Shown here one piece after another: positions 32,907 through 42,406 of a DNA stretch of 64,000 bases. The stretch is from Methanotrichaceae archaeon (GTDB taxonomy: Archaea; Halobacteriota; Methanosarcinia; Methanotrichales; Methanotrichaceae), in assembly GCA_963803145.1 (NCBI GenBank), contig CAWDLW010000025.1:64001-128000 (forward strand), written 5' to 3'. Every line of letters begins with the position of its first letter. Position 1 is the first letter of the stretch. A program made the position numbers and the translations under genes. The notes beneath the pieces were generated by a model. It was not told where the DNA came from and searched no databases. It saw only the letters and a program-made list of their open reading frames with translations.

Positions 32907-33899
32907 CTATTTTAGCTCCCTCATCTTGCTGTAATCCACTATCGCGGAGATGGGCATCGTGCTTATCCCTATCCCTTGCTCCTCCGCCGCAACGACAGCG
33001 TTTACGCCTGCGCAAAGAGTTATACCGATCTTGCCAGAGCCTATAGGACAGCCCAAATTGGGCTCCCCAGGTGCGCTTATTTTTATAAGGCCGCGAAGGC
33101 CTGCAGATTTCAACTGCTTGATGAGATTATCTGCGAGGTCTGCTGCTGCGAGGGGTACTTCTCTCACGTTTGCGAGTATTTTTCCCGTTCCATTGTACGT
33201 CGAGCTTGCGACACTCGTCATCTTGCGCGCCATGAATATCTTCATCGGGTCCAGGGAGGATCCTGCATAGGCAATTAAATCCGTGAATTCTGAAGGCGCT
33301 CTGCCGTCTATCTCAATAACACCAGCAAAAGTGGTATTGACAGGAATGCCTTTTTTCAGCAGGATGCCATCGATAGTGATGCTGCAAAGTGTAGCGATTC
33401 CTAGAGAGCCCTCTGGTATCTCAATGTTCGCAAGCTCTTCGGCCTCATCCAGTATTAGGACTCTTCTGCTTATCGTATAACCTGAGTCGAATACATTTTT
33501 AAGGAGATCAATGACCTTTTCGTAATCACTCTTTTTTATGATGCTGGTGTTGACGATTACATCCCCTCTCAGGCTTCGCGGATCAAAGCTTGTCCTGTAC
33601 ATATACTCCTCGATCCTGGTATTTACGAAGCCCATTCTATCGTCAACGAGAGCATCGCTCAGCTCACGAGCGCCAATTGGAGTTAGTGTCCTGCCGCTAT
33701 AGCCTTGTCTCTCAGTGAATCCCAGCTCATCCAGGATCTTGAGGTTATATCTGACAGCACGTTCTCCCAGCTCATAACCTCTATTGCTCAATAAATCGGA
33801 TATCATCCTTGCCCCAATGGGCTTATCCGCGCTATCTATGACTCTCAGGATCTCTATAAGCCTGCGTTGGCTTGTATGCTCCTTTGTGAGAAGCTTCAT
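32907..33899 (-). CDS. nrpR: Nitrogen regulator NrpR (wHTH + single NRD, NrpRI-type)
   Basis: N-terminal HTH (ERAVRY.L..LDE.G.T); NRD motifs TLCSITIDG.L and I.Y.G.SLDP. Confidence 0.85.
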   Translation of the reverse strand: MKLLTKEHTSQRRLIEILRVIDSADKPIGARMISDLLSNRGYELGERAVRYNLKILDELGFTERQGYSGRTLTPIGARELSDALVDDRMGFVNTRIEEYMYRTSFDPRSLRGDVIVNTSIIKKSDYEKVIDLLKNVFDSGYTISRRVLILDEAEELANIEIPEGSLGIATLCSITIDGILLKKGIPVNTTFAGVIEIDGRAPSEFTDLIAYAGSSLDPMKIFMARKMTSVASSTYNGTGKILANVREVPLAAADLADNLIKQLKSAGLRGLIKISAPGEPNLGCPIGSGKIGITLCAGVNAVVAAEEQGIGISTMPISAIVDYSKMRELK

Positions 33900-33955: not shown

Positions 33956-34028
33956 AGTCCCGTGGGGTAGCGGTCAAGCCTGAAGGCCTTTGGAGCCTGC
34001 GACGGCGGTTCGAATCCGCCCGGGACTA
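33956..34028 (+). tRNA. tRNA-Gln(TTG)
   Basis: Acceptor stem AGTCCCG/CGGGACT, anticodon loop CTTTGGA, T-loop GGTTCGAATCC; CCA not encoded. Confidence 0.93.
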
Positions 34029-34188
34029 CTATCGCTATGTCTGTATTGCTGTATGCCGCTCGGAAACGTACATATATCTATGAGATACATATCCATAGGA
34101 GTCTTTAATATGTGTGTGGCTGCAAGGCTTAATGGAACGGGAATCTGGCCAGATAGGGCGATAATTTCAACCAATGAGTAAAATAAGT

Positions 34189-34263
34189 GCTCCGGTAGTG
34201 TAGTCCGGTCAATCATTCCGGCCTTTCGAGCCGAAGACTCGGGTTCAAATCCCGGCCGGAGCA
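34189..34263 (+). tRNA. tRNA-Glu(TTC)
   Basis: Acceptor stem GCTCCGG/CCGGAGC, anticodon loop CTTTCGA, T-loop GGTTCAAATCC. Confidence 0.94.
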
Positions 34264-34430
34264 TCGATACATTTTGGGTACGTAAAATGTCGTAGTCGTT
34301 ACATGTGGGCAGCGGTTAGCGTTATTTTCTCGATTTTTATTCACTATATATCATCTATTTATCAGAATCGGATTAAGTATGGCCAAAGAATTATATCATC
34401 AGAGTTGTATTTTAATAAGCTTAGATTATA

Positions 34431-34729
34431 CAGATGTCGATTATTCCATTAAAATGCTCGATATGTTTATATTCCATTAAAATCCATAAGGGCTATGTGC
34501 CTGAGCAAAACACTCAAATATCAGCCATGAATCATGGGATCAGGTACACCATACCACAAGGGGCTGAATAATCACATCATCGGCTATGTAATCAGCCATG
34601 ATCGAGACGGGGATCGCTTCTCTGTATAGCATTTCCGGCTAAAAAGTCCAGGTGGGGTGGTACCATGGACCGAAAGCCACCGGTAAAGGCGGCCTCGGGC
34701 CCAAGGTTAATCAAGGAGGTGGGAACGAA
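34431..34729 (+). promoter_or_regulatory. Promoter and ~230-nt structured 5' leader of secreted paralogue 1
   Basis: TTTATAT at 34466; GTGCCTGA (34497) can pair with TCAGGTAC (34540); GGAGGTG RBS. The same layout occurs upstream of paralogue 2. Confidence 0.6.
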
Positions 34730-35485
34730 ATGAAGAAGGAACTAGTTGTTTTGGCAATTATTGCAATAGCCCTGGTAGGCATGGCTGGAGCAGCCAACTA
34801 CATGTACGAGAAGGCAAGTATAAAGGGCGTAGGATACAAGAACGTAGAGACGATCATTTCTACACAGTATGGATTCTCTGGCCAGAAGCTGGTTGAGAAG
34901 GAGTCAGGCTCTGGTAACGTAATTACAGAGAACACTGAGATCGAGGCAGAGAGACAGCTGGATATTAACGGCTACGCATTGCCCTGGAATTGTCCATATT
35001 CTAACACAAACTGCCGGATGGACTACATCAACTTCACCAAGGAAGCTGAGTTCGAGTACATGCCAGTCTCATACCAGACCGGTGAGTACAACCAGAAGTG
35101 GATAGAGAAGCTGTGTGTCCAGAACTACAGGATCGGCGCCGTGTTGACTGAGATGTACACTCATGCAGAGCACCTGCAGAAGGATACTGAGGTCAAGACA
35201 AGAGGATATGGCGTTAACCAGGTCGGATCTGGCTCGCAGTGCCCACTCTGCTGTACAGGCGTTCTCGAGGCCAATCTGAACAGCAACGTCATAGGCGTTG
35301 CCCATATCGGATGGCTATCCAGGGACCCGCTCGCAAACAGCCCGACTGCACTTAAGGGACGCCACGCAGAGTATGGCAGGTCCGTTGAGGATCTGACCGG
35401 TGTCTTCTCAATCGAGAAGTTCATCCAGCTCTGGGGCAACTCCACATGCGGCGCAATCAGCGTTGATTGGCTGCCTTGCGTGTAA
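34730..35485 (+). CDS. Secreted Cys-rich structural protein, paralogue 1 (putative sheath protein, MspA-like)
   Basis: GGAGGTG RBS, then ATG 34730. Signal peptide, 251 aa, 8 Cys, beta-type alternating pattern, ends DWLPCV. The sheath assignment is an inference. Confidence 0.6.
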   Translation: MKKELVVLAIIAIALVGMAGAANYMYEKASIKGVGYKNVETIISTQYGFSGQKLVEKESGSGNVITENTEIEAERQLDINGYALPWNCPYSNTNCRMDYINFTKEAEFEYMPVSYQTGEYNQKWIEKLCVQNYRIGAVLTEMYTHAEHLQKDTEVKTRGYGVNQVGSGSQCPLCCTGVLEANLNSNVIGVAHIGWLSRDPLANSPTALKGRHAEYGRSVEDLTGVFSIEKFIQLWGNSTCGAISVDWLPCV

Positions 35486-35861
35486 ATAACATAAAAACTT
35501 AGACGTATAAGCTCCCAGGCATCGTCCTGGGGCTTGTTTCTATATTTTTAAACCTAGCACCCCTACAGCTTGCTGTGCTGGGTTAAGGGTGTCATTATCC
35601 CGTTTTGGGGATGGATCCTTTAGTTAACTGCAACTTTAACGCTGTGACACCTTGCATCTATACTGCTAGAGTAGTGTGTGTTGTAGCCGTTTGATTTTAA
35701 ATCGCTCTCTATTCTAACATTTGGCAACCTTGAGACTAATCCTGATCGACATAATTAGCGGTTAAAGGATCGGGATACTGCAATATTATGGAATTCCACT
35801 CTAGAAAAACTTATAAGCTGTAAGGGTCAATATTTAGAGGATAATATGTATCTGTATAGAC

Positions 35862-36193
35862 CAGATGTCGACATGAACCGCCTGGTGACATATTCGATAG
35901 GTTTATATGCTATTAATCTAATTGAAAGGTCTGTGCCTGAGAATTATGCTCAAATATCGGCTAGAAACTGCAATATCAGGCGCCTCACACCTGAGTGGGT
36001 GGCCCTAAATACTTTCGGTTGCCTCCCCGAGGCGGGATCAAGCGTTATAGTTTCATCTTTTTTGATGGGACTTGCCCGGGAGCCGGAACCTGAAATTCGG
36101 CCATCAGGCAAGTGTGATGTACAGATGGATCTTATGGTGCCGTCTCTGGGCGGCTTTGGATCCTGAGTATTATAGATTGGAGGTGGGAACGAA
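35862..36193 (+). promoter_or_regulatory. Promoter and ~260-nt structured 5' leader of secreted paralogue 2
   Basis: TTTATAT at 35902; GTGCCTGA (35933) can pair with TCAGGCGC (35976); GGAGGTG RBS. Confidence 0.6.
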
Positions 36194-36949
36194 ATGAAGA
36201 AGGAACTAGTTGTTTTGGCAATTATTGCAATAGCCCTGGTAGGCATGGCTGGAGCAGCCAACTACATGTACGAGAAGGCAAGTATAAAAGGCGTAGGATA
36301 CAAGAACGTAGAGACGATCATTTCTACACAGTATGGATTTGCTGGCCAAAAGTTAGTCGAGAAGGAGTCAGGCTCTGGTAACGTAATTACAGAGAACACT
36401 GAGATCGAGGCAGAGAGACAGCTGGATGGTAATGGCTACGCATTGCCCTGGAATTGTCCATATTCTAACACAAACTGCCGGATGGACTACATCAACTTCA
36501 CCAAGGAAGCTGAGTTCGAGTACATGCCAGTCTCATACCAGACCGGTGAGTACAACCAGAAGTGGATAGAGAAGCTGTGTGTCCAGAACTACAGGATCGG
36601 CGCCGTGTTGACTGAGATGTACACTCATGCAGAGCACCTGCAGAAGACAACCGAGGTCAAGACAAGAGGATATGGCGTTAACCAAGTCAATACTGGCTCG
36701 CAGTGCCCACTCTGCTGTACAGGCGTTCTTGAGGCCAATCTGAACAGCAACGTCATAGGCGTTGCCCATATCGGATGGCTATCCAGGGACCCGCTCGCAA
36801 ACAGCCCGACTGCACTTAAGGGACGCCACGCAGAGTATGGCAGGTCCGTTGAGGATCTGACCGGTGTCTTCTCAATCGAGAAGTTCATCCAGCTCTGGGG
36901 CAACTCCACATGCGGCGCAATCAGCGTTGATTGGCTGCCTTGCGTGTAA
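36194..36949 (+). CDS. Secreted Cys-rich structural protein, paralogue 2 (near-identical to paralogue 1)
   Basis: Differs from 34730..35485 at 5 residues (S>A, I>G, D>T, GS>NT). Confidence 0.6.
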   Translation: MKKELVVLAIIAIALVGMAGAANYMYEKASIKGVGYKNVETIISTQYGFAGQKLVEKESGSGNVITENTEIEAERQLDGNGYALPWNCPYSNTNCRMDYINFTKEAEFEYMPVSYQTGEYNQKWIEKLCVQNYRIGAVLTEMYTHAEHLQKTTEVKTRGYGVNQVNTGSQCPLCCTGVLEANLNSNVIGVAHIGWLSRDPLANSPTALKGRHAEYGRSVEDLTGVFSIEKFIQLWGNSTCGAISVDWLPCV

Positions 36950-36989
36950 GCTTACCGCTAAATAGCCAATAGATTTATATAAAATAAAA

Positions 36990-37010
36990 GCTCCAGATCT
37001 TATCTGGAGC
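36990..37010 (+). terminator. 3' stem-loop after paralogue 2
   Basis: Perfect GCTCCAGAT-CTT-ATCTGGAGC, followed by a T-tract at ~37021. Confidence 0.6.
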
Positions 37011-37080
37011 ATATCTTACCTTTTTCAGGTAAGAAGGGATTTAAAACTAAACGTCATACCAAATAGGGGGTGAACGAAAA

Positions 37081-37872
37081 ATGAAGGGAGTAGTAGCAGC
37101 GATTATTATCGCGGCTCTTCTAGCCTGCTGCGGCATTGTGGTGGCAACGCCACCGATTATACCGCCAGTCCAGTTCGAGCAGTTCTGTGAGGATCAGAAG
37201 GTATCAGGAACAGGTGTAGTCGATGTGAGCACATCGATAGTAGATAAAAAGATAGCTCTTGAATATTATAACACTATGGCCGGTGATGGTGACATAGAGC
37301 TTAATCAGGAGCATGCATATTCTCAAGATGCCGATAAGCTTAAGAGAAATATATCATCGGTCAACGGTGGAAACCAATCAGCTCTAAATCTATACGAAAA
37401 TACCCAGCTTACATATTCGGGCCAAACACCCTTGACAGGTGGAAAATACCTCAACTCGAAGGAGTTCTATGGAGGAATTGGCGCCGATGTCCAAGAGATG
37501 TTCTCAGTAAATCAGATGGAGAAGCAGGAGACAGGGTTCTTCGCTTCAACAACGCCCTACAATCCGCCTGGAACAACGCCAGAGGGTCTCATAAAGGATC
37601 TGAAGAATGCAGGACGAGACACAACAGCAGTTAATGAACTCATGACGACAAATGAGGGTGTCAATGTGCCGTCGCACCTGATAGGCATTGATACCAAGAA
37701 CACATTCAACGGTACATGGGGCACTGATGCCAAGTGGCATAAGATATTCTACAAGGATATAAAGGCCCACGAGATGTTCACTGGACAGTTCGAGGCAGAG
37801 AAGACAATCAAGTTCCATGAAAATCCCGTGCCTGAGAACGAGCAGCCACCTTGTGCAGGCATAGATTGCTAG
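37081..37872 (+). CDS. Secreted protein, divergent member of the same family
   Basis: GGGGGTG RBS, signal peptide, motif series collinear with paralogues 1-3, C-terminal PCAGIDC. Confidence 0.7.
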   Translation: MKGVVAAIIIAALLACCGIVVATPPIIPPVQFEQFCEDQKVSGTGVVDVSTSIVDKKIALEYYNTMAGDGDIELNQEHAYSQDADKLKRNISSVNGGNQSALNLYENTQLTYSGQTPLTGGKYLNSKEFYGGIGADVQEMFSVNQMEKQETGFFASTTPYNPPGTTPEGLIKDLKNAGRDTTAVNELMTTNEGVNVPSHLIGIDTKNTFNGTWGTDAKWHKIFYKDIKAHEMFTGQFEAEKTIKFHENPVPENEQPPCAGIDC

Positions 37873-37906
37873 ACTTTGGACTAGCAATCGATTCTTTTTT
37901 TATTTT

Positions 37907-39091
37907 ATGGGGGTTAGTATGATAAGATTGATGACATTATCGATGTTAATTCTCATAATGGGTCTGGCGTCTGCCACAGTCGAGGATTTGGGCAATAACG
38001 CTGACACAGGAACAGGCAGCATATTGCCCACTTCACTGATTACACCATCGCTTCCATCCATGCCTATACCAGCGCCCGACATATGCACATCCACAGGCTA
38101 CTTAAAAGTCAATGTGGCGCTAACAGGCCCGCAATCTGAGAAAGATAAAGATTATACAACTCAAGGAAAAAGCTTGACCTTCGTGGTGACTGTGGAGAAC
38201 GATGGCTCATCAGATGCAAATGCCGATCTCAGCATAGATCCCGAGAGCTGTGCTCTCGAATGGTTTAGCTGGACTACATCGAGTCTGAAGATTCCATCAG
38301 GCTCATCACGCTCGGAGAATCTAGAAGTAAAACCCGATATTAACGCTGTCGCGGGTGATTATAGCTTCAAAGTAACTGCATCCGCAAAATGCTATAGATC
38401 AGGGTCAGCTGAGGCACCCTTCAAAGTACAGGATTACGATTATGCGTCTGAAACTGCGATAAGCGGGACAGGCCAGTTCCAGCTCAATAAGGACATCAGC
38501 TCAATGGATACCGGTATCAAATCAAACAAGGATATCTCATTCAGCGGGAGCGCAGATGCTATTGTCAAGAACGAGTATCTAGTAGATCAGGCAAAGGGCC
38601 GGAACCCCAACTTCGAAGAGCAGGATGCAGTTGATAACTATATGGCCATTAACCCGGGAGATGCGTTTCTGGGAACGGAGAAGTTCAAAAGTTCTGCCAT
38701 TTTCGGAGGAGTGGGTTCCACGATGACTGAGGCATATAACGTTAAGCAGATGGAGTTCAAGAACGCGGATTACAATCTGTACCAGACAGGATCACTGAAA
38801 AAGATGGCCGAGCTTAGAACAGCTGATAACTTCACTGGATACTATCTCATCGATGCCAAGCAGACAATTCCCGGTCAGAAGAACCTGAAGGAGCATGAGG
38901 AGTACCTCGGATCCTTCGAGATAAACAGGAGAATACTCTTCAAAGATAAACCAACAGTCACTACCACATGCGCTGATGGCCCTTGCACCGGCAGCACAAG
39001 TATCGCCAAACCGAACTTTCCCAGCCCATGTCTAAGCAGCTCATGCAGCAACTTCGCAAATAGCTTGAATGCCTTTTCGAAGTCTGCATGA
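37907..39091 (+). CDS. Secreted protein: Ig-like domain fused to a divergent copy of the same family domain
   Basis: Signal peptide; Ig-like segment (F.VTVEN.G...GDYSFKVTAS); then SGTG / GGVG...E / E.LGSFEI motifs; Cys-rich tail. Confidence 0.7.
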   Translation: MGVSMIRLMTLSMLILIMGLASATVEDLGNNADTGTGSILPTSLITPSLPSMPIPAPDICTSTGYLKVNVALTGPQSEKDKDYTTQGKSLTFVVTVENDGSSDANADLSIDPESCALEWFSWTTSSLKIPSGSSRSENLEVKPDINAVAGDYSFKVTASAKCYRSGSAEAPFKVQDYDYASETAISGTGQFQLNKDISSMDTGIKSNKDISFSGSADAIVKNEYLVDQAKGRNPNFEEQDAVDNYMAINPGDAFLGTEKFKSSAIFGGVGSTMTEAYNVKQMEFKNADYNLYQTGSLKKMAELRTADNFTGYYLIDAKQTIPGQKNLKEHEEYLGSFEINRRILFKDKPTVTTTCADGPCTGSTSIAKPNFPSPCLSSSCSNFANSLNAFSKSA

Positions 39092-39334
39092 GTTATATTT
39101 TTCTAAGAATTTTTCAACTATTTGCCGACCTAGCCAGCCTTTTGGGATGTATTTGTTGTACTTTATATAGCAGCCACAAGCTTGAAATAGGTACCTGATT
39201 GTCTTAGCCTCGGGTGTTAGGGTTATCAGGAGAGGAGGTTCAGCCTGGTACGCCAGAACCATAAATCCGCCAAATAGGTTGGATTACAATATTCTGGGCT
39301 TATTATATCCAGGCCTAAAGGAGGTAAGTGTGGA

Positions 39335-40066
39335 ATGAATCAAAAGTTGGTTGTTCTTGCGATCATCATAATTGCCCTAGTGGGAACGGTGAGCGCTGCC
39401 AACTACATGTATGAAAAATCATCTGTAAAAGGCGTAGGTTACAGAAACCTGGAGATTATAATCTCCACCCAAAGTGGCTTTGGCGGAGACAAGCTGGTGG
39501 AGAAGCAATCCGGATCGGGAAATGTGATAACATCGAATATCGAGGTTGAAGCAGAGAGACAGCTGAATCCTGACGGCAGCGCACTTGCGAATTGCAATTA
39601 CGCAAATTCAATTCCAATGGACTACATTAACTTCACTTCGGATCAAGAGCTAGAGTACATGCCTGTCTCATATCAGACTGGAACATACGATCAGAAGTGG
39701 ATAGATAAGCTATGTGTCCAGAACTACCAGATCGGCGCCGTCATGACAGAGATGTACACTCATGCAGAGCACCTGCAGAAGACAACTGAGGTCAAGACCA
39801 GATCTTACGGCACTCAGACAGCCACACCTTGCTGTACAGGCGTTCTCGAGGCCAACATCAACAGCAACGTCATAGGCGTTGCCCATATCGGATGGCTATC
39901 CAGGGATCCGCAAGCAAACAGCCCGACATCGCTCAAGGGACGCCACGCAGAATATGGCAGGTCCGTTGAGGATCTGACTGGTGTCTTCTCAATCGAGAAG
40001 TTCATCCAGCTCTGGGGCAACTCCACGTGCGGCTCAATCAGTGTTGATTGGCTGCCCTGTGTGTAA
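39335..40066 (+). CDS. Secreted Cys-rich structural protein, paralogue 3
   Basis: GGAGGT RBS; ANYMYEK N-terminus; C-terminal half almost identical to paralogues 1 and 2; ends DWLPCV. Confidence 0.6.
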   Translation: MNQKLVVLAIIIIALVGTVSAANYMYEKSSVKGVGYRNLEIIISTQSGFGGDKLVEKQSGSGNVITSNIEVEAERQLNPDGSALANCNYANSIPMDYINFTSDQELEYMPVSYQTGTYDQKWIDKLCVQNYQIGAVMTEMYTHAEHLQKTTEVKTRSYGTQTATPCCTGVLEANINSNVIGVAHIGWLSRDPQANSPTSLKGRHAEYGRSVEDLTGVFSIEKFIQLWGNSTCGSISVDWLPCV

Positions 40067-40171: not shown

Positions 40172-42406
40172 TTACGACCTATTAGTGTTATTTCCTGGTT
40201 CAAGACTCACGTTTATAATCCTGCCCTCAAGGACATCCTTCTCGCTTACGCTTATATTCTGTGTTCTTATGCCTTTGTCGTTGCCAGAGAATATCATATA
40301 TGGATCAAGGGCATGAGTCCCATATTTGTTCTCTGTGGAATAAGGAACCCTTATCTCATACTTGCCGTCTCTTGGCGATCCCTCGTTAATATAATAGAAC
40401 TCTTTGCCTTGATTGGAGGTCAAGTTCAGTAGTGCGCCTACCTTCTGATTGGGTGCTGTGCTCACCTTTATTAATGCGCCCGGAACATATTCGAAGATCT
40501 TTATCATACTATCGGGATTCTCAGTGCCAATAAGCGTAGGCGATCCATAAACCAGCCTGAAGTGCCCCATGCCTGCACCATTGAAAAAGTAAAGGCGTGC
40601 CATAGTCGTGTTCATAAGCTTCTGTGTGGGTGTGGCTTCAAAATCCGAGCCAGAATCCTTAACCGATAAGTAGCTGGCGGGGTCCTCATTTGCCCAGGCT
40701 GCAATGCCAGGCAGCTTGCTGTAAAGCATATTATAGTCCACGAGAACATACTTGGATTTTTTCGCATCAAGCACTGCAGTTGAGGCCGATTCATCACTAG
40801 AGAGATAGAATTTCACAGAATCCGCCACCCCAGACTGGAAATTGTCTGCAATCACCGGCCGCTTTGCGAGGTAAACCACCCAGTTTCCATAATCCCAGAA
40901 GTTCATAATGCCGTACTCAGGGGTTTTTTCGGGGTTTTCATAAAAACTGGTGGAATTGCTGTTACTCTCAAGCCAGTTTAAGGACTCGTACCAATCACCT
41001 ACTGTCTGTGGGACATTGCTTGTGAAATTCATGGTCTCAGATACGGTAGGCAAGATCAAAAGCAATAGCAACACTGTAGCCAGGGCTTTCGAGGACTTCC
41101 CCAAAGCGTCACGTTTGCTAATTGCATCTAGTGCCCAGAAGAAGAGAACGCTTATCAGTATTCCCATTGCAATTGTGGAGAGGTAGAGGAATCTTATCTG
41201 TGATACTGTCAGCAAAAGAGATGCAACTGCCCATGTTAGAATAAAGAGCTGGCCCTTCTCCTCCGCACCTTTTTGTTTGATATATATGGCTAGAACAACA
41301 AGCCCGACCAAAGAGAGGAGCAGGTTCAAGATAAGGTTCCAGCCCAAACTGGAGACGAGCGAGTATGAGAACAGATTCCCGGAATTGGATAAGAGGGGTT
41401 CTGCCTCAGAGATCTTTCCGCTCATTCCCCCTGAAAAGAGAAAATCACCGCCTGATTGAATGAGCGCACCCATATCAAATAAGCTGCCAAAGAGCCTGAA
41501 GAGAACTGTAATGGCACCGGCAATGGCTAATAGAGCCAAAGGGAAGATGGTCCAGTTAATATTCTTCTCGAGGCAAACTTTAGATATTGCGAACATAAGC
41601 AGCATTGCCACAATTGAAGCAGCTATTCCTACGAAGGATGGCAGGAGCCAGGGCGCATTCCAGAAAGGCAATGTGAAGATTAACGCAACTCCAAAAGCCA
41701 ATAAAAATGTGGTTGCAAACTCTTTTGATTGTATCCCGCTCTTCAAATTATATGCCGTTTGAATGGCTACATAAACTAGAATTATCCCCAGATAGATATC
41801 TGCGCCCAACCATGTATAAGCCAGTGCAGCCATCATTATGCCTGAGACTATAGCGAAGACATTTCTCTTTTCTGTCCTTTTGAGGGCCAAAATCAGAAAT
41901 AGAATAGAACTAAGGAAAAGCAAGACCTCTAGTCCATGATGATCAGTCGCACCAATATCTGTTTTCGGTATATAGTAAGGAGATATTGCTGCCATGAATG
42001 CTGAAAAAAGTGCAATATTGCTGTTGAAGGCAGCTTTGGCCAAATAATAGACGACTACAACGGCTACAGTCCCGATAACTACAGGAACCATAGCAGCTAC
42101 CATCGCAATCCCGGGCGGTGTATGCTGGCCCAAAGCAATAGAAAACAATGCGGATAGCTGATCGAAGAGGGGAGGCCACGTCAGGCTTAGGCCGTGGGGA
42201 TAATTAAGATACGAATCGAACCAGAGTGTGTTGGGGAAGTGGTTTGCGGTATATAAAATTCTGCGCATATGATAATACTCATCAGCACCATCCGGTAGAA
42301 TGCCATTTTCCGTAAGGGAGTATCTTCCTGCAAACAACCTTAACAAAAGGCCCAGCAGGGCTACTGCCAACACTTCCGCTGGCTCATACCTTTTCGCACG
42401 GTCCAT
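40172..42406 (-). CDS. aglB: Oligosaccharyltransferase AglB (STT3 family)
   Basis: D.YYH.R, DHH, ISE..PL, FWDYG (WWDYG variant) and DNFQ motifs; many TMs. Confidence 0.92.
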   Translation of the reverse strand: MDRAKRYEPAEVLAVALLGLLLRLFAGRYSLTENGILPDGADEYYHMRRILYTANHFPNTLWFDSYLNYPHGLSLTWPPLFDQLSALFSIALGQHTPPGIAMVAAMVPVVIGTVAVVVVYYLAKAAFNSNIALFSAFMAAISPYYIPKTDIGATDHHGLEVLLFLSSILFLILALKRTEKRNVFAIVSGIMMAALAYTWLGADIYLGIILVYVAIQTAYNLKSGIQSKEFATTFLLAFGVALIFTLPFWNAPWLLPSFVGIAASIVAMLLMFAISKVCLEKNINWTIFPLALLAIAGAITVLFRLFGSLFDMGALIQSGGDFLFSGGMSGKISEAEPLLSNSGNLFSYSLVSSLGWNLILNLLLSLVGLVVLAIYIKQKGAEEKGQLFILTWAVASLLLTVSQIRFLYLSTIAMGILISVLFFWALDAISKRDALGKSSKALATVLLLLLILPTVSETMNFTSNVPQTVGDWYESLNWLESNSNSTSFYENPEKTPEYGIMNFWDYGNWVVYLAKRPVIADNFQSGVADSVKFYLSSDESASTAVLDAKKSKYVLVDYNMLYSKLPGIAAWANEDPASYLSVKDSGSDFEATPTQKLMNTTMARLYFFNGAGMGHFRLVYGSPTLIGTENPDSMIKIFEYVPGALIKVSTAPNQKVGALLNLTSNQGKEFYYINEGSPRDGKYEIRVPYSTENKYGTHALDPYMIFSGNDKGIRTQNISVSEKDVLEGRIINVSLEPGNNTNRS

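Follow-up and report, generated by a model that had tools for sequence, protein, structure and literature searches.

How does an archaeon come to keep the same short elements at the same spacing in front of two nearly identical tandem genes, when the DNA around these elements has drifted apart? The question is raised by a stretch of 64,000 nucleotides (nt) of Methanothrix DNA (Methanotrichaceae; contig CAWDLW010000025.1, positions 64,001 to 128,000), which has an archaeal gene content and is called here the window, its first letter being position 1. The two genes, copy 1 (34730-35485) and copy 2 (36194-36949), and the upstream elements described below lie on the plus strand. A preliminary description of the sequence had noted that the upstream DNA is otherwise diverged, and this is indeed the case: the coding sequences (CDS) are 97.5% identical at the DNA level versus 58% for the leaders and 61% for the 80-nt promoters, so that the shared islands stand out. 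The same description had proposed an undescribed structured 5' leader motif common to the paralogues, a proposal supported by the recurrence of the motif in 33 of 44 assemblies, by covariation of its helices and by the lack of any Rfam match.

All the motif strings listed earlier were found at their coordinates. Both core promoters read TCGATAnGTTTATAT (34458-34472 and 35894-35908), and GTGCCTGAG begins at 34497 and 35933, exactly 31 nt past the start of TTTATAT (34466 and 35902) in both copies. The composite TTTATAT-N24-GTGCCTGAG-N7-CTCAAATATC, allowing up to two mismatches, has two matches in the window and none in any of 100 dinucleotide shuffles. The bare octamer GTGCCTGA occurs six times against 1.8 expected; the other four sites (7707 and 25209 on the minus strand, 37828 and 63861 on the plus strand) were dismissed, as both a TATA box and a pairing partner are missing there. 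The partners of the two retained sites, TCAGGTAC at 34540 in copy 1 and TCAGGCGC at 35976 in copy 2, were located, as were the long-range stems TACCAC 34552 / GTGGTA 34657 and TCACAC 35985 / GTGTGA 36112, and the three stems initially recognized correspond to the helices named P1, P2 and P3 below. Counted from its predicted start, the leader of copy 1 covers 34497-34729 (233 nt, from G34497 to the base before the ATG) and belongs to what we call class I, and that of copy 2 covers 35933-36193 (261 nt, from G35933) and belongs to class II.

A scan of GTDB with one genome per species gave 345 stretches encoding a relative of these genes, of which the best 80 were kept, making up 76 loci from 44 assemblies. 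Upstream of the 128 gene starts found by tblastn, 125 had at least about 150 nt of sequence, and TTTATAT (up to one mismatch)-N24-GTGCCTGAG (up to two mismatches) was present in 54 of these 125 regions, at 72-271 nt from the ATG. A covariance model of the 5' part of the leader (R1, 61 positions), searched at an expectation value (E) of at most 1 on both strands of 494,899 nt, gave 71 matches, none of them on the strand opposite to the gene; in 68 cases a start codon of the family follows at 72-271 nt, and the other three are near locus ends where the gene is uncallable. Within the window, R1 matches only 34497-34557 and 35933-35993 (71.3 and 58.9 bits). A full-length model built from class II leaders (R2, 257 positions, 34 pairs), searched at E of at most 0.01, gave 77 matches in 39 loci from the 33 assemblies, again all on the gene strand, one of them covering the Shine-Dalgarno (SD) end only. 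R2 aligns class I leaders end to end though it was built from class II: copy 1 scores 74.6 bits over its whole leader (E 2.5e-18) and copy 2 scores 208 bits. No occurrence away from a family gene was found among the 495 kb of gene-family loci searched, and the leader motif is linked to this gene family. Regarding the sample itself, 74 of the 76 loci carry Methanotrichaceae-type labels. The two others, L012 (CAYUJU010000111.1) and L007 (JBAZDV010000003.1), come from bins labelled Methylobacillus and Methanomethylophilaceae and look like mis-binned contigs; the class I leader of L012 agrees with that of L015, from a Methanosaeta bin, across the first 110 nt compared.

Promoter geometry was counted over 70 distinct upstream sequences. 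TTTATAT starts at -31 in 54 of them, at -32 in nine and at -30 in two (65/70 within -30 to -32), position -1 is a pyrimidine in 68/70 and +1 is G in 69/70, and sequence conservation sets in sharply at +1. The archaeal arrangement of a factor B recognition element (BRE) and a TATA box centred about 26-28 nt before a purine start that follows a pyrimidine is thus found here. As this geometry is standard for archaea, G34497 and G35933 are likely starts, and transcription most likely begins at the G of GTGCCTGA / GUGCCUGA. In copy 1, the core promoter (34458-34472) is composed of TCGATATG at a BRE-like position and the TATA box at 34466-34472; in copy 2 (35894-35908), it is composed of TCGATAGG and the TATA box at 35902-35908. 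A TCGA motif stands at -39 in 40/70 promoters and at -58 to -60 in 15/70, the latter chiefly of class I. The upstream decamer CAGATGTCGA shared by the two copies, a possible factor site, lies at 34431-34440 in copy 1 (-66 to -57), where it contains TCGA, and at 35862-35871 in copy 2 (-71 to -62). This second TCGA motif (ATGTCGAT / ATATCGAT; 34431-34440 and 35862-35871) precedes the TCGA at -39 by about 20 nt, and the two may be paired sites for a transcription factor. A small subgroup carries a palindrome GCGTGTG...CACACGC across the predicted start (L016:2740-2775, L047:2745-2775, L064:950-985 and L029:2770-2800), and L047 lacks the GUGCCUG 5' strand; either the start of these leaders is shifted upstream by a few nt, so that the RNA would begin with a local hairpin, or the palindrome is a site at the DNA level.

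The first helix, P1, pairs nt 1-8 of the leader with nt 44-51, namely 34497-34504 (GUGCCUGA) with 34540-34547 (UCAGGUAC) in copy 1, around a conserved loop with the option of a local UGAG/CUCA hairpin, and 35933-35940 with 35976-35983 (UCAGGCGC) in copy 2. RNAalifold applied to 52 leader 5' parts returned a single helix, in which nt 1-7 pair with a segment located some 44 nt further on. With the eighth pair included, 96.8% of the cells are paired versus 27-44% on slid partners, and all eight pairs form in 24/24 class I leaders. In unconstrained ensembles, the unpaired probability of nt 1-8 averages 0.15 and stays below 0.2 in 49/66 leaders. The 3' strand alternates between GGUAC and GGCGC. The earlier statement that the changes preserve pairing holds as far as pairing itself is concerned, but pairing is kept only through wobble against an unchanged 5' strand, GGUAC giving a G.U plus a U-A pair and GGCGC a G-C plus a U.G pair. 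Since the 5' strand is nearly invariant, P1 has few compensatory cells, only two being truly so (A-U in L041:3984 and U-G in L030:3807). The local UGAG/CUCA hairpin, which overlaps nt 6-8 of P1, carries compensatory changes as well (pair 9-17: GC 30, AU 6, GU 5; pair 8-18: AU 44, GC 1, UA 1). In class I, a segment GGUGCC just past P2 resembles GUGCC at the 5' end and is likewise capable of pairing with GGUAC, the 3' strand of P1, 88-100% of the class I sequences pairing per column (A7 columns 50-55 with 208-213); in copy 1 the segment is GGUACC and the pairing is perfect (34543-34548 with about 34659-34664). This pairing could be an alternative to P1.

The second helix, P2, is long-range and encloses a variable domain. 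In copy 1, it joins 34549-34552 and 34554-34557 to 34652-34655 and 34657-34660 (CCAU-A-CCAC / GUGG-G-GUGG) around a three-hairpin domain; it is found in the minimum free energy (MFE) and centroid folds, is placed there by the covariance-model alignment and has a duplex energy of -16.4 kcal/mol, the TACCAC/GTGGTA stem of the preliminary description being an overlapping register of it. In copy 2, it joins 35985-35988 and 35990-35993 to 36109-36112 and 36114-36117, and contains TCACAC/GTGTGA. The third helix, P3, is a bipartite hairpin located ahead of the SD sequence. In copy 1 (34667-34702), it has an outer stem GGACC/GGGCC, mismatched at one position, around a GC-rich inner stem with GGCGGC; in copy 2 (36127-36163), it divides into P3a (36127-36131/36159-36163, GGAUC/GAUCC) and P3b (36139-36143/36150-36154, GCCGU/GGCGG), the latter being the GGCGGC hairpin noticed earlier. 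The variable domain of copy 2 also holds a hairpin named Ha (36050-36071, GUUUCAUC / GAUGGGAC), with a loop of six U at 36058-36063.

RNAalifold on mixed-class MAFFT alignments recovered only P1, and the classes were therefore handled separately or aligned by covariance model. On the MAFFT alignment of class II (A6, 23 sequences including copy 2), RNAalifold returned Ha and P3, and in an unbiased scan of all column pairs P2, with its 15 compensatory cells, ranked far ahead of any other helix. Taken together, P1, P2, Ha, P3a and P3b have 97.4% of their cells paired in A6 (98.3% for Ha) versus 31-43% when slid; eight pairs changed on both sides versus 2.9 +/- 1.2, none of 500 shuffles reaching as high, and four of the eight P2 pairs are compensatory. 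An alignment-free test, in which the 16 nt that follow P1 were paired with the 30 nt that precede P3 in 63 leaders (three of the 66 distinct leaders being too short or devoid of an anchor), gave a mean of -15.1 kcal/mol for P2, compared to -11.6 with non-cognate and -8.9 +/- 3.0 with shuffled partners. Among 23 dissimilar representatives (5' strands differing at more than 4 of 16 positions), cognate strands gave -15.7 kcal/mol versus -10.8 +/- 0.5 for swapped ones, and none of 2000 derangements came as low as the cognate value; indeed, many P2 helices are wholly different in sequence, such as UCCUCGUGACGGA/UCUGUCAACGAGGA in L052. The preliminary description had staked its proposal on significant covariation across genomes, and this is what the structure-guided covariance-model alignment of 75 distinct leaders presents: 94.2% of cells are paired versus 30-43% slid, 19 of 34 pairs changed on both sides versus 10.2 +/- 1.5 (none of 500 shuffles as high), and 123 cells are compensatory versus 27.4 +/- 5.1, with changes of this kind in all eight P2 pairs and also in P3b. 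The helices of the leader are conserved; P2 covaries strongly, and P1 varies almost only by wobble.

Such covariation bears directly on the possibility that only DNA is at work here, i.e., that the promoter motifs and the block from +1 to about +27 serve as initiator or operator while the downstream helices have no role as RNA. Several features would suit this scheme: GTGCCTGAG begins exactly at the predicted start and its strand hardly varies, TGAG-N7-CTCA and TGAAAA-N3-TTTTCA are palindromic in the manner of sites for dimeric factors, and the GCGTGTG...CACACGC palindrome spans the predicted start in L016, L047, L064 and L029. However, compensatory changes occur in helices 50-250 nt past the start, P3b and Ha covarying too, and since the two P2 strands are 100-130 nt apart a role in DNA only fails to explain them. 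Moreover, all variation in the P1 partner (+44 to +51) is compatible with RNA pairing, including G.U, which would be meaningless in duplex DNA. We consequently regard this explanation as quite improbable.

The compensatory changes likewise limit what could be made of a shorter transcript. An attenuator or separate small RNA, with a stop inside the leader, for instance at the U-rich loop of Ha, would release a stable RNA of about 60-130 nt, and P1 with its conserved loop is indeed a self-contained hairpin domain. Oligo-T tracts can terminate archaeal transcription, and copy 2 has such a tract (T6, 36058-36063). Against this, the U-run does not exceed 4 nt in most class II leaders, and class I and short leaders have no Ha. 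The P2 covariation ties the region after P1 to the region before P3, so that full-length leaders are required, and the motif never stood apart from a family gene in the 495 kb. Such an RNA is therefore very improbable.

The distribution of the two classes speaks to a further possibility, that the similarity is a functionless leftover of duplication or conversion. In many genomes, class I leaders stand before the first gene of the array and class II leaders before the second, an order also seen in the window. Class I is marked by GGUAC and the invariant loop GAGCAAAAYACUCAAAUAU, and class II by GGCGC. The P2-enclosed domain holds one to three hairpins; shorter variants of about 185 nt lack Ha, which is gapped in 42-43 of the 75 leaders. 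Between copies 1 and 2, identity collapses about 20 nt before the ATG and right after the stop codon (58% in the leaders, 47% in the 120 nt downstream), a pattern that looks like gene conversion limited to the CDS and ribosome-binding site. Because the CDS are homogenised while the leader classes stay distinct and keep their gene positions across species, the leaders appear to be under selection of their own. Recent or homogenised duplicates that are 97.5% identical could of course be expected to share leftover similarity, but conversion ends about 20 nt before the ATG, and leaders only 58% identical are each conserved, as a class, across many species-level genomes. Leftover similarity, already contradicted by the covariation, is hardly credible.

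What, then, would such a leader do? The most likely role, which we consider somewhat probable, is to protect the 5' end and to insulate the ribosome site of very abundant mRNAs. Each tandem gene would be its own transcription unit, driven by a promoter with TCGA at -39, TTTATAT at -31 and a pyrimidine/purine initiator. The 233-nt and 261-nt leaders would then fold into the three-part architecture conserved in the alignments: P1 would bury the 5' end by pairing the first 8 nt with nt 44-51; P2, beginning 1-2 nt past P1 and pairing 100-130 nt downstream, would close the variable domain of one to three hairpins; and the bipartite P3 would be followed by a strong, mostly unpaired SD sequence. The buried 5' end and the compact fold might shield the mRNA from 5'-end-dependent decay, for example by archaeal 5'-3' exonucleases of RNase J type, whereas the P2/P3 scaffold might keep a long leader from occluding the ribosome-binding site. 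The outcome would be a very high and sustained expression of secreted, probably sheath-forming proteins.

The state of the ribosome-binding site can be read from the folds. In copy 1, the SD sequence GGAGGUG (34715-34721, with the ATG at 34730) has an ensemble unpaired probability of 0.76; in copy 2 (36179-36185, ATG at 36194), this value is 0.32. Over the unconstrained ensembles of the 66 leaders, the mean is 0.53 for the SD versus 0.37 for the rest of the leader, the SD being more accessible than the leader mean in 51/66, and the consensus helices P1, P2, Ha and P3 leave both SD and AUG unpaired.

Stabilisation by 5'-terminal stem-loops is known from the leaders of Escherichia coli ompA, Bacillus subtilis aprE and the Lactobacillus S-layer gene slpA. 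These leaders share with the present one their length, an abundant exported structural protein as product (a probable one here), a paired 5' end (predicted here), an accessible ribosome-binding site and a promoter of their own for each gene. They differ in that the Methanothrix leader has an archaeal promoter and decay machinery and no sequence or structural homology to them, and that it is a much larger, three-domain leader with a long-range helix and a variable insert, for which stabilisation is only proposed. Closer in lineage are the leaders of Methanosarcina mazei and Methanolobus psychrophilus (mtaA/mtaC and ribosomal-protein genes), which are likewise long and have proposed or demonstrated effects on stability and translation; unlike the present motif, they were defined by transcript mapping in single species and without a covarying consensus. 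Long 5' untranslated regions (UTRs) are reported as common in related methanogens, 24% of the mRNAs of M. psychrophilus having a 5' UTR above 150 nt (PMC5378194).

Several points weigh against the protective reading and against the evidence on which it stands. In M. psychrophilus, leader processing is reported to have raised stability and translation, the processed short-UTR transcripts being more stable than the long primary ones (PMC5499594); the polarity is opposite to that of a stabiliser model, removal of the leader having the favourable effect, and a long leader need therefore not stabilise. A purely stabilising leader would have no need of a specific binding partner, yet the sequence-invariant P1 loop of class I suggests one. 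P1 conservation could come in part from an initiator or another role at the DNA level, and the start could lie a few nt further upstream, which would leave a short 5' overhang. As to the helices, P2 of class II was chosen after scanning the same alignment in which it was then counted, and the strongest covariation counts come from an alignment fitted to the structure. In its own MAFFT alignment, class I alone is 91.1% paired and its covariation is not significant (3 pairs versus 2.7 in shuffles). Single-sequence folds are not significantly more stable than shuffles (copy 1, z = -1.6; copy 2, z = -1.1), and P2 is missing from the MFE fold of copy 2, which has P1, whereas all three of P1, P2 and P3 appear in the MFE fold of copy 1.

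The invariant loop leads to the most serious competitor of the protective leader, a regulatory switch in which a trans-acting factor (protein, small RNA, temperature, or the status of secretion or assembly) acts on the P1 loop or the variable domain. The 5' strand of P2 (with CCUC in class II and CUCC in class I) would shift between P2, leaving the SD free, and the SD GGAGGUG itself, which would then be blocked. In place of P2, RNAalifold on class II in fact favoured a helix between GCCUC (columns 53-57) and GGAGG (columns 260-264), formed by 19-23 of the 23 sequences. Despite the divergence of the variable domain, about 17 nt of the P1 loop are invariant in class I, the UGAG/CUCA hairpin overlapping nt 6-8 of P1 has compensatory changes of its own, the class I GGUGCC after P2 is able to pair with the P1 3' strand, and distinct leader classes on near-identical genes suggest differential control. 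Nevertheless, C-rich strands pair with any G-rich site, and since the SD is invariant the anti-SD pairing is beyond a covariation test. Several divergent leaders, such as L041:3984, have no CCUC/CUCC in the P2 5' strand; the domain closed by P2 can be almost missing or as long as about 130 nt, which is not what a ligand pocket would show; the alternative helices are short, each being restricted to a class; and the partner is so far only hypothetical. We hold a switch to be rather unlikely. Its more specific form, a new class of archaeal riboregulator in which a secretion- or assembly-sensing protein or a small RNA reads the class-specific P1 loop and toggles the P2 strand and the SD, is slightly less likely still; if true, it would allow near-identical tandem genes to be expressed at different, condition-dependent ratios.

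The type of element can be narrowed down further by comparison with described families. Over the whole window, only two tRNAs pass the gathering score of Rfam 15, and a permissive Rfam scan of 34266-39400 gave five chance-level matches, the best of them (E 0.3, 26 bits against a gathering score of 113) to an unrelated eukaryotic family. The leader resembles the cis-regulatory families of Rfam (riboswitches, ribosomal-protein leaders, thermometers) by its conserved 5' UTR structure, its compensatory changes and its placement on one gene family; it differs from them in that it matches no model, that its P2 domain varies in size and that the SD is not sequestered in the consensus. The fixed architecture and invariant unpaired core of a riboswitch are lacking, the P2 domain being variable, the leaders ranging from 72 to 271 nt and the conserved unpaired stretches being class-specific and not motif-wide. 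Similarly, the consensus fold does not hold SD and AUG in a weak local helix, as an RNA thermometer would. A full-text literature search, judged at the level of abstracts, returned no description of a Methanothrix leader or RNA motif, and the words 'promoter' and 'UTR' are absent from the 2024 survey of archaeal sheaths (PMC11576556). The comparison supports the view that structured mRNA leaders are known as a kind, whereas the leader of these sheath-like genes of Methanothrix appears itself to be undescribed. Few conserved cis-acting mRNA structures are known from archaea.

The genes that carry the leader form one cluster of five same-strand genes (34730-40066), directly downstream of tRNA-Gln (33956-34029) and tRNA-Glu (34188-34265). 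Copies 1 and 2 encode proteins of 251 aa that are 98% identical, with a signal-peptide-like N-terminus and a probable membership in the sheath (SH) family. Copy 3 (39335-40066) encodes 243 aa, 79% identical to copy 1, and in all three the hydrophobic N-terminus ends in AGA/AN. Between copies 2 and 3 lie a 263-aa relative (37081-37872, 24% identical) and a 394-aa protein (37907-39091), the latter with homology to the 263-aa protein in its C-terminal half (E 6e-9). The N-terminal part of the 394-aa protein has a weak NEW3/Ig-like domain (Pfam E 0.0016, below the cut-off), a layout that recalls the 'cap domain' diversity described for sheath proteins. The cluster is flanked on the minus strand by genes for the repressor NrpR (32907-33899) and the oligosaccharyltransferase AglB (40172-42406).

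According to the sheath survey, SH proteins occur in all Methanotrichales and have 150-350 aa with a signal peptide, their genes form tandem clusters of neighbours up to 100% identical, often near tRNA genes, and in Methanotrichales they are the most highly transcribed genes (PMC11576556). The cluster in the window agrees with this picture in length, signal-peptide-like N-terminus, tandem near-identity and tRNA proximity. The label 'envelope' given to these proteins is based on that N-terminus and on the agreement with the published gene description, from which copies 1 and 2 are likely sheath subunits. The paralogues have no family in Pfam or NCBIfam and no solved structure by PDB sequence search, and the ESM Atlas gave no usable match. 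A protein search returned 2532 relatives among 3380 candidates, the named ones being all hypothetical proteins of Methanothrix or Methanotrichaceae. The family is a narrow one: of 1.84 billion cluster representatives searched exhaustively by profile, only 229 matched at E of at most 0.001. A 220-aa relative (cluster of P0178), 40% identical to mature copy 1, is annotated from a metagenome-assembled genome (MAG) of Archaeoglobaceae; it hints that the family may extend outside Methanotrichaceae, as the survey reports for anaerobic methanotrophic archaea of group 1 (ANME-1). Five MAG protein accessions of the family are absent from the supplements of the survey (PMC11576556).

An AlphaFold2 model of the mature copy 1 protein, made from a 40-sequence alignment, is all-beta with long strands (predicted local distance difference test, pLDDT, 83.9; predicted TM-score, pTM, 0.81), an earlier model from 14 close sequences having been unusable (pLDDT 31.5). 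Foldseek with this model found nothing at E of at most 0.001 in PDB and BFVD, and PDB holds no SH model; the study of the Methanospirillum hungatei SH protein, whose core is made of two beta-sheets of six antiparallel strands, deposited maps only. Sheath identity stays likely rather than proven.

If these are sheath subunit genes, the promoter and leader would constitute a cassette that acts as a control unit for building the cell envelope, on genes that would be among the most highly transcribed of the cell (PMC11576556), and would offer a candidate high-expression part for engineering methanogens. A large, modular motif with a well-covarying long-range helix would also provide a tractable system in which to ask how the decay and translation machinery of archaea protects, or reads, the 5' ends of mRNAs. 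In wetlands, rice soils and digesters, Methanothrix ranks among the major producers of methane from acetate. No genetic system is known for Methanothrix, and comparative evidence is hence the main route to its gene control.

Copy 3 had been counted among the genes with the shared elements. The strings TTTATAT (39162), GTACCTGA (39191) and TCAGG (39226) are present, but the gene was rejected as a member, having no match with R1 (E of at most 1) or R2 (E of at most 0.01), and its similarity to the motif is superficial. Its P1-like duplex is no better than shuffles (-8.0 versus -6.8 +/- 2.3), and its promoter and leader (39162-39334) belong to a distinct class III, found in 12 of the 125 upstream regions and characterized by CTTGAAATAG ... 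GGGTGYTAGGGT ... AGGAGAG. RNAalifold on the 12 class III leaders gave -1 kcal/mol and no compensatory pair. In this class the TATA box comes first, the stretch from there to the likely start holds GCAGCCA(A/C)AA(C/G)CTTGAAATAG, and GGGTGYTAGGGT and AGGAGAG follow (window 39150-39334, L008:6243-6391, L013:6213-6359, L019:3911-4056 and others), and conservation between TATA box and start is unusual.

Three open reading frames (ORFs) that touch the leaders were also considered. An upstream ORF encoding a leader peptide was dropped, the ATG in the P1 loop of copy 1 not being conserved in other leaders; a 106-aa ORF (35846-36166) was dropped, overlapping promoter and leader in a class whose indels are not multiples of three; and a 277-aa extension of copy 1 from a GTG (34652) is unlikely, given the conserved SD and N-terminus. 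Finally, the segment after P2 in class II (36114-36125 in the window) reads GUGAUGUAC(U/A)GA. The string GUGAUGUACUGA, found in class II and absent from class I, recalls the boxes of archaeal C/D RNAs, a C box (RUGAUGA) with a D box (CUGA) behind it, and may represent a kink-turn (K-turn)/L7Ae site.

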